This document shows positions 805-63,196 of a stretch of DNA of 64,000 bases, one piece after another; position 1 is the stretch's first letter; each line of letters begins with the position of its first letter. The stretch is from a virus (Duplodnaviria > Caudoviricetes): the IMG/VR virus record IMGVR_UViG_3300032092_000001. The stretch is one strand, 5' to 3'. The position numbers and the translations under genes are program-made. The notes beneath the pieces were generated by a model, which had not been told where the DNA came from, did not search any database, and saw only the letters and a list, made by a program, of their open reading frames with translations.

Positions 805-811
805 TATTTAT
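805..811 (+). promoter_or_regulatory. TATTTAT element (putative late promoter)
   Basis: 6 nt before ATG at 818; recurrent motif. Confidence 0.6.
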
Positions 812-817
812 ATTCAT

Positions 818-1042
818 ATGCCAAGTTCAGGTTACATTTACGACATTACAGGTACAACACCTTTTCAGGTGTATGTCTCATTTTCAGGAGACGTTACTCA
901 ATACTATTATATAAATGAAATCGCAACTGGCGACTTACCCTACACCTTTGATTTACCAAGAGCAATACAGGACCAAACGGCGTATTGTGTTAAGATAGTT
1001 GACGGCGATGGGTGTATAATAACAGGATGCACAACAACTTAA
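818..1042 (+). CDS. Small virion-associated beta-sandwich-like module (paralog of 8541..8774 and N-terminus of 11385..12395)
   Basis: Shared pattern G-x-x-P-F/Y-x-V-Y ... LP ... KI-V/I-D-x-x-x-C. Confidence 0.65.
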
Positions 1043-1046
1043 CAAA

Positions 1047-3545
1047 TTGGGAATAATAGAATGGTATAGTTTTTCGGGGTGTTGTAGCGGTACAACATTT
1101 CAGGTAGAATCTTCTTTACCGTTATCGGCATTTACCGCAGGTTACTCTTATTATTTAGAGACGGACCAATATACAGGATGCTCAGAATTTTTAACTTCAG
1201 GTTTTAATAGAGGAGCAACAGAATATATTTTGTTTTCATCTAATACGACATCTTATTCAAGTTGTACAGCATGTAAATTAGTTTATCCTTGTGTTCCGGG
1301 TCCAACACCAACTCCAACTTCAACTCCCGCACCTTCACCGACACCAACAAGAACTGCAACCCCTACACCAACGGTAACTACCACTCAAACTGTAACACCA
1401 TCTAGTACACCGACACCAACGATAACAAATACCCCAACGGTAACTAAAACACCAACTAATACACCTACTGTAACCCCAACGGTAACTAAAACACCAACCA
1501 ACACTCCAACAGTTACTAATACACCAACAAATACTTCTACACCATCATTAACACCAACTAATACTCCAACAAGAACTGTAACTCCATCACCTTCAGTAAC
1601 ACCAACATTAACTCCAACATCAAGTAATACTCCAACACCCACACCAACTCCAAGTATAACACCAACAATAACACCATCACCAACAATAACAAAGACACCA
1701 AGACCAACTCTACAAGTTTCACCAACCACAACACCTTCAGTTAGTGTAACACCAACAATTACTCCAAGTACAACTCCATTATCTGGTTGTGTTTATCAAT
1801 CATTTTGTGTTTTCACAAAGTTAACAGGGTATTCACAATACGATGGTACATATTACAACTATGGTGGATATAACGGATATGATATATTTTATGCGCCTGA
1901 CGCAACGACACCATCATTTATTTATTTTGATATTACTAATTCAAGATGGGTATTATCCGAAACTAGTGGAGGTACTGCAGTATTGTTTGGACCAACTAAG
2001 ACATATTCAAAATGTCCTGATTTAGATGAAACATGGTTTAACAATGTTTGCCCAACACCAACACCATCAAGTACTGATGCATGTAACACATTTGATTTTA
2101 CAGCTTCTTTTGATTGTAATATAACATCAGGAGCCACACCCACCCCAACACCAACAGTCACATCAACAAGTACACCAACCCCAACTCCAACACCAACTCC
2201 AATATGTTACGGTAAGGCAGTTAGTTTTTCAGCAAGTACTTATGATTACCCATTAGAAACACCTACTCCAACACCAACACCAACAAACTTAGTGAAGGGT
2301 GTTAGTGTTACTGGCTCAAGTACAACAACAACTATTGAGACTTCTTTCACAAGCTCATTGTCTAAGGTTCTTCAAGATTGTACTGACCCATTAACTTATT
2401 ATGTTTCAGAATCAGTTCCATTTAATACAGGTGCAACGTTTAGTGCAATTATTGATAACAATCCAGTTTGTGTAACTTACTTGTACGATGACCCGATTCC
2501 ACCTGTAAATGTACTTAATTCAATTGAGAGTGGAAACTTGTTTGAATGTAGATTCTGTGTTCCGTCATACTCACCAACCCCAACACCTACCACGACACCA
2601 ACACCAACTCCAACAACACCTCCACCTCATGTAATTGCAACATTATCAGTACCATTAGCACCTTTCTATGGTGTAGTTGACGAAAGTACTGAAACATTAT
2701 ATAGTATTAACTCAGGAGCAACCGTAAGTGTAATTAGTCTTTCCGCAATATCCGTAACTTCAACAATTACAGGATTTACAGCACCTAATTATGGTGGTGT
2801 GATTGACCCAATCAATAATACATTAATTGTATCTAACCACACAAGTGGAACATTAAGTGTTGTTGCATTAAGTTCTAACACTATCGTACAAACAATATCT
2901 CTTGGTGGTACAAACTTCCCGTATGGAATGTCGTTTGATTCAGTTAATAATAGAATATATGTATCAATCTATAATCAAGCACAAGTTAGATACTTTGACG
3001 TATCTTCGGGTGTACCATACACATTAGGAGGAACAATCTCAGTTCAAAACAGACCTGAGCAACCAGTATTTGTTGCTAAAAATTCAAGACTATATGTACC
3101 TTGTTCTTCAGGTGGAACTGTTTCAGTAATTAACACAATTACAAATTCAGTAATATCAACAATACCAATTGGACCTGGAGGTTTATCAGGACATTTACCA
3201 AGATTTGCAGTTTACTCTCCAAACAACGACACAGTATACGTAGCTTGTAATGGTACAGGTAATGTGATAACAATTAATCCAAATACTAACTTAACAGGTT
3301 CAACATTGTCAACAGGTTTAGGAAGTGGTGCGGCTAACACAATTGCACTTGACACTAATAGTGATAGATTATACGTAAGTAATTTATCTTTTGATAACTT
3401 AACAGTATTCAACATTAATACCAATACAATAACTAATACAATTACAATAGGTGATGGACCGAGAGGAATTGCTTATGATACAGTTTATGATAGAATGTAC
3501 GTATCAGTGAACTTAGATAATGAAATTAAAGTACTAAACACATAA
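1047..3545 (+). CDS. Putative adhesin/fibre: Cys-rich N-terminus, Pro/Thr stalk, C-terminal YVTN/YncE-like beta-propeller
   Basis: TTG start 4 nt after the previous stop; long TPT repeats; propeller repeats such as [28 protein letters not shown] and [12 protein letters not shown]. Confidence 0.8.
1296..1779 (+). repeat. Pro/Thr-rich coding tandem repeat (mucin-like linker)
   Basis: Degenerate TPT/TVT/TNT units; exact 26-bp duplication accccaacggtaactaaaacaccaac at 1431-1456 and 1473-1498. Confidence 0.9.
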
Positions 3546-3561
3546 AAAATGAAATTATAAT

Positions 3562-3568
3562 TATTTAT
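3562..3568 (+). promoter_or_regulatory. TATTTAT element (putative late promoter)
   Basis: 4 nt before ATG at 3573. Confidence 0.6.
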
Positions 3569-61374: not shown

Positions 61375-61375
61375 A

Positions 61376-61404
61376 TTGATAAATATCTATTTTTTACTTA
61401 TTAT
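61376..61404 (+). promoter_or_regulatory. Sigma70-like promoter candidate for the SNF2 helicase
   Basis: TTGATA-N17-TATTAT; the -35 box overlaps the minus-strand TATTTAT. Confidence 0.45.
61379..61385 (-). promoter_or_regulatory. TATTTAT element (putative late promoter)
   Basis: 4 nt before ATG at 61374. Confidence 0.6.
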
Positions 61405-61427
61405 TACGATAATGTAATTTTGGAATT

Positions 61428-63188
61428 TTGGAAACAGGAAAACAACATTTAAGTATTGAGCAAGAAGCAATTGACCTTTTAGAAAAATATGAAGGGTCAA
61501 ACAACTATATACTTAGAATTAAAAAACAATGTGAGTCTAATAAAAAACACATTCCCACAAGGGCTCAATGTGAATATGTTATAACGTATTATAAAACAAC
61601 ACCTAAAGTTGCAAAAAAATGGGTTGACATTGATTCATACTTTTCAAAAAAACTTGTGGAAGATAATCCATTCATTAAGGAACCTGATAAAATCTATATT
61701 GAGAAATTACTCGTTGAGAAAGATAAGTCTTATCATATATGGGGTAAGGTTTTTAGTGGTGACACTATTCACGATTTTTGGGTACCTAAAGCTGCGGTAA
61801 TTAAGGAGTATAAAGAAAACATTGTTAATGTTGATTATTCAAAATACGATAATCGTCCCCCACTGTTTCACCAAAAGGAAGCAATTGAAAAGTTATTGAA
61901 GAATGATAAGTTCATATTGGCAGATGATATGGGACTAGGAAAGACAACTTCAACTGTTATCGCATCGTTGGAGAGTGGGTCTAAAAAAACTTTAATTATC
62001 TGTCCGGCATCTTTGAAGATAAATTGGGAGAGGGAGATTAAGAACTACACTGATAAGACGGTTTATATTTGTGAGGGTAAGAAATTTGAAGACGCTGACT
62101 ATATCATTACAAACTATGATATATTAAAAAACTTTCACGACCCGAAAGATAAAGAAAACTCAATACTTTTAAAATCAAAATTTGATTTGGTGGTTATTGA
62201 CGAAGCCCATTATGTGTCTAACGCTCAGGCTCAGAGGACAAAAATCATTATGGACCTAACCAAGAATATTAAAAAACTTTGGTTGTTAACAGGTACTCCG
62301 ATGACCTCACGTCCAATGAATTATTATAACATACTGAAGTTAATTGATAGTCCTGTTAGTCAGAATTGGATGGCATACGCAATCCGTTATTGTAATGGAT
62401 ATCAATTTAGAGTTGGTAGTAAAAAAGTTTGGAATGTCACAGGAGCGTCTAATTTAGAAGAATTACGAGATAGAACCTCAAGACAAATTCTTCGTAGATT
62501 AAAGACGGATGTTTTGGATTTACCCGATAAAATTATGACACCCGTTTACCTTCGTTTAAAATCTCGTTTATATGAAGGACTTATGGGTGAGTATTATGAT
62601 TGGTATAATAATCGTCAAGACGAATCAAAATCATTGTCCGTACAGTTTACAAAATTGATGAAAGTTAGACAGGTTCTTGCCGAAGAGAAAATATCTCACA
62701 CAATTGAGCTTGCTGAAAACATTATTGAGCAAGGTAAGAAAGTTATTATTTTTAGTAACTTCACTGAACCTTTAAAAAAGATACACGAACATTTTGGTAA
62801 AAAATCAGTTTATTTAGACGGGTCAACCACAAAACCTGCAAGACAAGATGCTGTTGATAAATTTCAAGAAAGTGATAAGATACAGGTGTTTTGTGGAAAT
62901 ATTAAAGCAGCGGGGGTTGGTTTAACATTAACCGCGGCTGAAGCATGTATCATGAATGACTTATCATTTGTACCTGCGGAACACAGTCAGGCAGAGGACC
63001 GAGCGTATCGTTACGGACAAAAAAACACAGTTTCAATCTACTATCCAATTTTTGAGAATACGATTGAAGGGGTAATTTACGATATTTTAGATAGAAAAAA
63101 GAAAATCATCGGAACTGTTATGGGGGACTTACAAGAAACTGATGCAGACATTGTGGAACAAATCTTGAAAGAAATCAATAATAGGTAA
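61428..63188 (+). CDS. SNF2-family (HARP/SMARCAL1-like) helicase/translocase
   Basis: LADDMGLGKT, DEAH, LTGTP, GLTLTAA, QAEDRAYRYGQ. Confidence 0.93.
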   Translation: METGKQHLSIEQEAIDLLEKYEGSNNYILRIKKQCESNKKHIPTRAQCEYVITYYKTTPKVAKKWVDIDSYFSKKLVEDNPFIKEPDKIYIEKLLVEKDKSYHIWGKVFSGDTIHDFWVPKAAVIKEYKENIVNVDYSKYDNRPPLFHQKEAIEKLLKNDKFILADDMGLGKTTSTVIASLESGSKKTLIICPASLKINWEREIKNYTDKTVYICEGKKFEDADYIITNYDILKNFHDPKDKENSILLKSKFDLVVIDEAHYVSNAQAQRTKIIMDLTKNIKKLWLLTGTPMTSRPMNYYNILKLIDSPVSQNWMAYAIRYCNGYQFRVGSKKVWNVTGASNLEELRDRTSRQILRRLKTDVLDLPDKIMTPVYLRLKSRLYEGLMGEYYDWYNNRQDESKSLSVQFTKLMKVRQVLAEEKISHTIELAENIIEQGKKVIIFSNFTEPLKKIHEHFGKKSVYLDGSTTKPARQDAVDKFQESDKIQVFCGNIKAAGVGLTLTAAEACIMNDLSFVPAEHSQAEDRAYRYGQKNTVSIYYPIFENTIEGVIYDILDRKKKIIGTVMGDLQETDADIVEQILKEINNR

Positions 63189-63189
63189 G

Positions 63190-63196
63190 TATTTAT
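63190..63196 (+). promoter_or_regulatory. TATTTAT element (putative late promoter)
   Basis: 5 nt before ATG at 63202. Confidence 0.6.

Follow-up and report, generated by a model that had tools for sequence, protein, structure and literature searches.

The stretch of DNA analyzed here, referred to as the window, comprises 64,000 nucleotides (nt) of the virus record IMGVR_UViG_3300032092_000001 and has a guanine-cytosine content of ~32%. Its gene content was assessed with PHROG and Pfam profile scans, which identified the window as part of a large T4-like myovirus carrying tail and baseplate genes, a replication block and three giant genes (Table 1). The phage is probably a giant lake-water phage that infects Flavobacterium-like bacteria or other Bacteroidota; a megablast search with the window revealed no close relative among the GenBank phages. 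The three giant gene products of 1979, 2067 and 1546 amino acids (aa) yielded no Pfam or PHROG match. The element in question is the heptamer TATTTAT, called the box below, which precedes many genes of the window, including those for the sheath, the tube and the gp25-like wedge as well as two of the three giant genes (1979 and 1546 aa), and which most likely acts as a late promoter element.

An earlier note on this DNA had listed 17 starts with sense-strand TATTTAT upstream, ten of them at a gap of only 4-6 nt, had reported no copy before the replication-type genes and had remarked on the lack of Shine-Dalgarno sites. All 17 copies and all ten short gaps were recovered, and a Shine-Dalgarno-like core was found at just two of the 41 starts in the window. 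None of the nine replication-type genes (primase, RuvC-like, nrdA, nrdB, dnaB, exonuclease, recA/uvsX, SSB and SNF2 helicase) was preceded by the box, versus 17 of the 32 other genes (Fisher p = 0.005). The same note had called for a comparison with shuffled sequence, and the positional enrichment was borne out. Over the whole window TATTTAT was not enriched (37 copies versus 49.7 in dinucleotide shuffles), and this total lies under the shuffle expectation because the heptamer is avoided inside genes. Nineteen of the 37 copies fall in the 1,558 non-coding bases, which make up 2.4% of the window. Within the 40 nt before starts TATTTAT was the commonest 7-mer, occurring at 16 of 41 genes (mean 1.9 and maximum 8 in 2,000 shuffled or Markov sets), with 16 copies in the sense orientation versus one in antisense. 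When the 21 7-mers of the same composition were compared, TATTTAT had the fewest copies within genes (18, the other words reaching 40-91) and the most in intergenic sequence (19 versus a mean of 6.6).

Table 1. Boxes, adjoining elements and genes of the window. Classes and promoter or terminator assignments are predictions.
Feature	Position	Strand	Distance to start	Downstream gene, class or basis
TATTTAT box	805..811	+	6 nt to ATG 818	74-aa gene; predicted leaderless class
TATTTAT box	3562..3568	+	4 nt to ATG 3573	716-aa gene; predicted leaderless class
TATTTAT box	5726..5732	+	5 nt to ATG 5738	724-aa gene; predicted leaderless class
TATTTAT within 3' end of tail-fibre gene	8808..8814	-	33 nt to ATG 8774	77-aa gene; possible internal promoter; absent from the earlier list
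TATTTAT box	12401..12407	-	5 nt to ATG 12395	336-aa gene; predicted leaderless class
TATTTAT box	18408..18414	-	26 nt to TTG 18381	
TATTTAT box	27999..28005	-	11 nt to ATG 27987	1979-aa gene
TATTTAT box	30356..30362	-	5 nt to ATG 30350	gp25-like baseplate wedge; predicted leaderless class
TATTTAT box	31366..31372	-	4 nt to ATG 31361	255-aa gene; predicted leaderless class; directly 3' of terminator-like hairpin
Terminator-like hairpin (TATCCCGA/TCGGGATT) and T-run	31382..31410	-		just upstream of 31366 box
TATTTAT box	40629..40635	-	13 nt to ATG 40615	74-aa gene
TATTTAT box	51817..51823	-	15 nt to ATG 51801	1546-aa gene
TATTTAT box	53823..53829	-	4 nt to ATG 53818	653-aa gene; predicted leaderless class
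TATTTAT box	55353..55359	-	32 nt to ATG 55320	tail tube; predicted long A-rich leader
TATTTAT box	56252..56258	-	5 nt to ATG 56246	271-aa gene; predicted leaderless class
Tandem second TATTTAT	56263..56269	-	16 nt to ATG 56246	271-aa gene
Terminator-like hairpin (AAACCCTCA/TGGGGGTTT) and T-run	56265..56297	-		reaches into the tandem boxes
TATTTAT box	59573..59579	-	34 nt to ATG 59538	tail sheath
Opposite-strand TATTTAT	59564..59570	+	87 nt to ATG 59658	back to back over the sheath promoter (overlap 59564-59579)
TATTTAT box	59616..59622	+	35 nt to ATG 59658	49-aa ribbon-helix-helix-like gene
TATTTAT box	61379..61385	-	4 nt to ATG 61374	171-aa gene; predicted leaderless class
TATTTAT box	63190..63196	+	5 nt to ATG 63202	Fe/Mn superoxide dismutase homologue; predicted leaderless class
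Primase fragment	2-748			PHROG/Pfam
RuvC-like gene	7958-8551			PHROG/Pfam
Tail-fibre-like gene	8778-11375			PHROG/Pfam
Giant gene, 1979 aa	22048-27987	-		among tail genes
Two baseplate wedge genes, one gp25-like (start 30350)	28049-30350			PHROG/Pfam
Replication block: nrdA, nrdB, dnaB, exonuclease, UvsX/RecA-like recombinase, SSB	31433-39657			PHROG/Pfam
Giant gene, 2067 aa	40642-46845	-		among tail genes
Giant gene, 1546 aa	47161-51801	-		among tail genes
Baseplate hub	53979-54758			PHROG/Pfam
Tail tube	54832-55320	-		PHROG/Pfam
Tail sheath	56317-59538	-		PHROG/Pfam
SNF2-type helicase	61428-63188			PHROG/Pfam

The box was conserved far beyond the window. About 600 relatives were found in IMG/VR through the sheath gene, and the best 80 loci (1.08 Mb), mostly ~60% identical in the sheath protein, were used for comparison. 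All 75 loci that cover the sheath start carried an exact TATTTAT 29-40 nt before the ATG, between flanks that have diverged. A GTAAAGTTTTTTG-like element is kept ~13 nt upstream of the sheath box in most of these 75 relatives and may be an operator; it was also considered as a general upstream element of the box and rejected, being specific to the sheath promoter. A cultured relative is available in Flavobacterium phage vB_FspM_immuto_2-6A (NC_055915; below, immuto), the host of which is Flavobacterium sp. LMO8. Its genome carries the box before the sheath, tube, baseplate hub, tape measure and other virion genes, before GroES, and directly upstream of a 102-aa open reading frame (ORF; start 43413), which is followed by the endolysin and holin genes. 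Short-spacer genes of immuto lie at record positions 10527, 81525 and 142474. The immuto polA, SSB, recA, exonuclease, dnaB and nrd starts have no box within 50 nt. The late timing of the box-bearing genes is suggested by the function of these genes; the one RNA run of the source study contained almost none of the words sampled from this DNA.

The gp23-type major capsid gene was located in immuto and in three of the relatives (G007, G005 and G008). It is preceded by an A-rich intergenic leader of 30-45 nt, usually without a box of its own; only the G005 gene has one, 41 nt upstream. The capsid gene appears to be transcribed together with the gene upstream of it.

The distance from the box to the start codon was analyzed by measuring from each box to the first ATG opening an ORF, with the 80 loci counted as unique contexts. 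Spacers of 4, 5 and 6 nt occurred at 50, 40 and 10 sites, respectively, with four sites in total at 0-3 nt and another four at 7-9 nt. Two further peaks were seen, one of 105 sites at 13-17 nt and one at 30-37 nt that consisted of the sheath and tube genes. Eight control words of similar composition gave a flat distribution in the same loci. The pattern was repeated in G008, an independent complete relative of 321 kb with terminal repeats, where 18, 15 and 4 sites had spacers of 4, 5 and 6 nt, two fell at 0-3 nt and 42 at 13-17 nt; among spacers of 0-11 nt the excess at 4-6 nt was highly significant (binomial p = 2e-14). The related word TATAAAT showed no positional signal in the 80 loci or in G008. 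Members with a 4-6 nt spacer were present in 17 of 39 gene families, and 37 of 39 short-spacer starts were ATG. Single families switch between the 4-6 nt and the 12-19 nt spacing. Orthologues of the 171-aa and 271-aa genes start at the same methionine with either spacer, and therefore the start codon is right and the distance of the box alone changes. Head-to-head palindromes, in which CAT-N4-6-ATAAATA overlaps TATTTAT-N4-6-ATG, were absent from the window, from 160 loci and from G008.

The sequence between the box and the more distant starts revealed a further constraint. An A was found at positions +5, +6 and +7 past the box in 82, 97 and 90% of the sites with spacers of 12-18 nt and in 83, 90 and 84% of those with spacers of 28-42 nt; of the nine leadered copies in the window, eight show an A at +6. 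The start codon of the short class places its own A on +5, +6 or +7, the same place as the conserved A of the leadered classes. A logo of 396 sites held information in the 7-mer, weakly in the two preceding bases (A/G) and in the A at +5 to +7, with no general upstream or -35-like element and no TTTG at -33. The eighth position was A in 53% and G in 7% of the sites. Judged from this pattern, the conserved A is likely the transcription start site. Start sites mapped in Flavobacterium psychrophilum place the sigma-A box TAnnTTTG at -12 to -5 (PMC9723704). If the 8-mer TATTTATN is placed at these same positions, +1 would therefore be the sixth base after the 7-mer. The earlier note had argued that a spacing of 4-6 nt puts the transcription start at or near the AUG; the coincidence of the ATG with the conserved A, in a geometry matching the Flavobacterium -7 box, speaks for this proposal. 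Leaderless genes of other bacteria have been called by like logic from -10-like signals (PMC3160421).

The boxes are also placed as expected at the beginnings of transcription units. Of the 124 boxes in G008, 17 have a terminator-like hairpin with a T-run in the 60 nt upstream, versus 6 of 248 starts that lack a box and 36 of 2,000 sites picked at random. The short-spacer boxes of genes 31361 (4 nt) and 56246 (5 nt) in the window directly follow such hairpins. Among the 37 short-spacer genes of G008, 14 head divergent units, some with intergenic regions of only 35-48 nt, and six follow terminators. Genes at the head of a divergent unit have therefore no co-directional upstream message.

A candidate for the protein that reads the box was sought among the relatives, since the earlier note had proposed a phage sigma factor. 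The T4 gp55 family phrog_234 gave weak matches in related records, two of them in a conserved 249-aa protein, the gene of which ends a glycosyltransferase operon. This family is present in G002, G004, G007 and G008 and in immuto, where it corresponds to the unannotated gp118 (E = 2.6e-17), and both complete relatives tested have it; it is 66-100% conserved across a set of 80 IMG/VR loci. Structure searches with Foldseek/VIA-align using an AlphaFold model of the protein retrieved almost only sigma factors for residues 25-135, in the N-terminal half, with sigma-2 domains at Z 7-8 and a root-mean-square deviation (rmsd) of 2.7-3.5. Against T4 gp55 (7d7d_F) the model gave Z 7.3 and an rmsd of 3.5 over 97 residues, and its C-terminal part showed a weak resemblance to region 4. 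The best local match of the family at the sequence level is to gp55; alignment with it by hhalign yielded E = 0.0066 over 42 columns around a conserved AY...C.N...SY stretch, and one family member touches Sigma70_r2 with E = 0.007. These fold and profile matches, together with the co-occurrence with the box, weakly suggest that the 249-aa family may be a divergent phage sigma factor with a sigma-2 domain.

The jumbo relatives (G001, G007, G005 and G008) also encode an RpoD-like sigma factor of 270-288 aa (Sigma70_r2 at ~63-66 bits). A Sigma70_r2 match was absent from immuto although this phage uses the box, and therefore the 249-aa family is favoured as the reader. The phrog_234 match in G001 turned out to be an ordinary sigma factor of the extracytoplasmic function (ECF) type (192 aa; phrog_1740, E = 1.8e-26), which is not the shared reader because it is missing from the other relatives. 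A search with phrog_12791 gave no match anywhere, and the control was equally silent. In 42 unique loci the box lies upstream of the sigma-like gene in 6 and just downstream of it in 39. The gene directly after it encodes a 122-aa protein (L083:2115-2483, L084:2069-2443 and 40 further loci) and carries the box in 39 of 42 loci, mostly at 4-6 nt. The model of this protein is a helical hairpin with an acidic tail, and immuto has a 116-aa gene in the equivalent place; the 122-aa protein is a candidate partner of the putative sigma factor.

Taken together, we consider it probable that TATTTAT is a late promoter consisting of a -10 element alone and recognized by a phage sigma factor, and that leaderless mRNAs arise at ~30% of the sites. 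The earlier note had suggested such a promoter, and its proposal gained support from the strand specificity of the box, from its exact conservation in diverged relatives and from its frequent position after terminators or at the head of divergent units. According to the proposed mechanism, TATTTAT (often TATTTATA) would be the core of a -10-type element at about -12 to -6 on the non-template strand, without a -35 partner, and would be recognized by the host RNA polymerase carrying the very divergent 249-aa sigma factor encoded by the phage. Transcription would start at an A located at the fifth to seventh, mostly the sixth, base past the box. Three builds may be distinguished. At ~30% of the boxes (10 of 18 in the window) the start-site A would be the A of the ATG, giving an mRNA with no leader, or with a single extra base at most, that would be translated by recognition of its 5'-terminal AUG. 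The second build would have an A-rich leader of ~8-12 nt, and the third, found at the genes for the most abundant proteins (sheath and tube), an A-rich leader of ~25-32 nt. The floor of 4 nt and the gap at 7-9 nt in the spacer distribution would be expected where translation can begin at a 5'-terminal AUG and cannot after a leader of a few bases. A more far-reaching proposal is that this large clade of T4-like Bacteroidota phages uses leader length (leaderless, or A-rich with ~9 or ~28 nt) as a dial for the yield of late proteins, with one sigma-specific box setting the RNA 5' end and single genes shifting between the three builds in evolution. The leaderless form would then be a major selected route in a phylum whose ribosomes do without Shine-Dalgarno pairing, perhaps favoured after the phage changes the translation state of its host; we put this forward tentatively and regard it as rather doubtful.

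Several observations weigh against this interpretation. The evidence for the 249-aa family comes from relatives and immuto. Its AlphaFold model reached a predicted local distance difference test (pLDDT) score of 67, the Z scores stay below 8 and are tied with those of ECF sigma factors, hmmscan gave no PHROG match for the family, and its profile found gp55 among the sequences of the Protein Data Bank (PDB) at E = 0.58. The phage sigma factor expected in the earlier note has a weakly assigned candidate in the sigma-like family that co-occurs with the box in the relatives. The searches did not establish the 122-aa protein as a gp33: its profile had no match in the PDB, the predicted fold is a generic helical hairpin, and hhalign against T4 gp33 gave E = 0.2. 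A gp45-type clamp (PF02916) was not detected in the complete relatives G005, G007 and G008 or in immuto, although a divergent clamp could escape the search (T4 gp45 as control: E = 2.9e-35). With no gp45-type clamp and no recognised gp33, a T4-style clamp-activated mechanism is therefore not supported. As to the division between late and replication genes, the box at 40629 in the window sits upstream of the SSB block, an example of boxes from which transcription could continue into replication genes, and in G008 a dnaB homologue has a box 22 nt upstream. Finally, the counts across the relatives and the 80 loci are not phylogenetically independent.

Other explanations for the box were evaluated against the same observations. 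The promoter could be read by the host primary sigma factor or by the RpoD-like sigma factor of the phage, in which case the box would be a variant of TAnnTTTG, the -7 box of Bacteroidota. TATTTATA agrees with the -7 box at four of its six specified positions and occupies the same inferred place, -12 to -5 (PMC9723704), the jumbo relatives do encode a 270-288-aa sigma factor with a strong Sigma70_r2 match, and the gp55-like assignment of the 249-aa family is weak. Against this, the sixth position of the box is an invariant A and there is no G at the eighth, where host promoters keep T and G, the logo is devoid of a -33 TTTG partner, and the replication genes have other promoter-like sequences instead of the box. 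Moreover, immuto uses the box without a Sigma70_r2 match, yet carries the 249-aa family. We therefore regard a reading by such a sigma factor as unlikely.

It may also be asked whether the promoter, though real, serves only genes farther downstream, with the products of the genes 4-6 nt away coming from longer transcripts that begin upstream. The arrangement of many units would allow this, as 18 of the 32 classified short-spacer genes in G008 follow a co-directional gene, and genes 3573 and 5738 of the window follow co-directional genes by 27 and 14 nt. Leaderless mRNAs are also a minority in Bacteroidota, accounting for 5.5% in F. psychrophilum (PMC9723704), and ~3.7% of the 5' untranslated regions of Bacteroides thetaiotaomicron are shorter than 10 nt (PMC7366714). 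This explanation does not suit the short-spacer genes that head divergent units or follow terminators, in G008 as in the window (31361 and 56246). The 4-nt floor and the gap at 7-9 nt point to selection on the position of the ATG relative to the start site, which would be pointless if the transcripts were not translated, and nearly all short-spacer starts are ATG. Such a division of labour thus seems improbable to us.

The earlier note had named a translation-initiation signal as the alternative. An action of the box in RNA, as a U/A-rich translation enhancer, a site for ribosomal protein S1 or a processing site, would account for the position of the box near start codons in a host group without Shine-Dalgarno sites, in which the upstream A/U content tunes initiation (PMC6847099), but it does not fit three separate spacing classes from 4 to ~37 nt instead of one. 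All seven bases of the box are invariant across relatives with diverged flanks, the box is strongly avoided within genes on both strands, and it occurs after terminators and in divergent intergenic regions, where upstream transcription would not reach; an RNA element is thus very unlikely. Least credible of all is a phage-encoded RNA polymerase as in phiKZ, AR9 or crAss-like phages, since the three giant genes without a family match (1546, 1979 and 2067 aa), which might be thought to encode it, show no polymerase domain, the 1979- and 1546-aa genes themselves carry the box and lie among tail genes, and the relatives possess a gp23-type capsid gene and sigma-like genes, phages with such capsids reportedly having no RNA polymerases and encoding sigma factors (PMC7824862).

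Promoter-like sequences of other types were noted in the window. TTATAAT or TATAAT was the second commonest 7-mer upstream of starts and was present at nine genes, mostly without TATTTAT, including the starts 7958, 8778, 14567, 40642, 46835, 53979 and 59804. A near-consensus sigma-70-type promoter, TTGACA-N17-TATACT, lies at 39685-39713 (-), 27 nt before the SSB gene; it is unexpected in a Bacteroidota phage, where promoters are of the TTTG/TAnnTTTG type, and may be a target of the phage RpoD-like sigma factor. Host-type elements occur before the primase (749-779; TTTG-N19-TATATTT, 1 nt from the ATG) and before the SNF2 helicase (61367-61422; TAATTTTG, 5 nt from the TTG start). These may be early promoters abutting their starts, or the starts may be miscalled.

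Further features of the genes were recorded. The second codon is strongly biased to GCN or GGN, with ATGGCA as the commonest beginning (8 of 41) and G at +4 in about half of the window genes. The gene at 63202-63999 (+), which runs past the end of the window, encodes a homologue of Fe/Mn superoxide dismutase (Sod_Fe_N 9.5e-23, Sod_Fe_C 5.4e-41) that is extended at its N terminus by ~36 residues; its relatives have ~435 aa. With a short-spacer box upstream it looks like a late-expressed phage superoxide dismutase. The 832-aa protein (1047-3545, +) has a C-terminal lactonase-type seven-bladed beta-propeller (PF10282, 1.7e-09) and shares phrog_15511 with the 336-aa protein (11385-12395). The 49-aa gene at 59658-59807, divergent from the sheath gene, gave weak, below cut-off matches to ribbon-helix-helix repressors (Omega, RepB regulator) and is kept in the relatives (G008 87482).

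The box offers a testable key to the late genes of uncultured Bacteroidota phages from fresh water and the sea, which form a very large group. With it, late genes can be told from replication genes, start codons assigned and transcription units recognized, in genomes whose genes mostly lack a known function. Its short-spacer class predicts leaderless mRNAs for about one third of the late transcription units, in a phylum where such mRNAs are rare; given their low frequency in F. psychrophilum and B. thetaiotaomicron, a class comprising ~30% of the late promoters would therefore be unusual. The observations also bear on start codon choice by ribosomes that work without Shine-Dalgarno pairing. 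The prediction is directly testable, since both the box and the candidate sigma factor occur in immuto, which is in culture with its host Flavobacterium sp. LMO8. Literature searches on TATTTAT, TATTTATA and late promoters in T4-like phages of Bacteroidota brought up no paper that describes the box or a leaderless late class.

Comparison with known systems places the box closest to the late promoters of T4, TATAAATA, which are read by gp55 together with gp33 and the gp45 sliding clamp (PMC2988020). In both systems an A/T box lies roughly one helical turn before the start, which here is a predicted one, a -35 element is lacking and the downstream segment is A/T-rich; in both, too, the box precedes virion genes and is served by a small divergent phage sigma factor, which here is a candidate. 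The two boxes are identical at six of eight positions (TAT..ATA), with TT in the centre here and AA in T4. The earlier note had described TATTTAT as essentially the reverse complement of the T4 box; this holds to the letter, yet a variant in the same orientation (TAT-AA-ATA to TAT-TT-ATA) is the better reading and, as the T4 box is nearly palindromic, the simpler description. The systems differ in that ~30% of the boxes abut a start codon here, whereas in T4 TATAAATA-N0-8-ATG occurs four times versus eight for the reversed control, and in that the sigma-like protein has 249 aa and, unlike gp55, an extra C-terminal helical domain. Late transcription would thus resemble that of T4 in outline, and membership in the gp55/gp33/gp45 system is not established. 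Group 2 jumbo phages, Bacteroidetes ones included, are described as lacking RNA polymerases and encoding sigma factors and gp33 (PMC7824862).

With the sigma-A promoters of Bacteroidota (-7 box TAnnTTTG, -33 TTTG; PMC9723704) the box shares its inferred position, the initial TA and the T at positions 5 and 7. It differs from them by the A at position 6, the lack of G at position 8 and of the -33 element, and its restriction to virion and other late-type genes. Leaderless genes of Actinobacteria and Deinococcus have a -10-like signal ~10 nt upstream of the start codon (PMC3160421, PMC4007540). They share with the short-spacer class described here an AUG start codon directly adjoined by a promoter element, and the lack of a Shine-Dalgarno site. 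Unlike in those bacteria, the element in the window is phage-specific, it occurs in a phylum with few leaderless mRNAs, and orthologous genes appear to switch between leaderless and short-leader builds.

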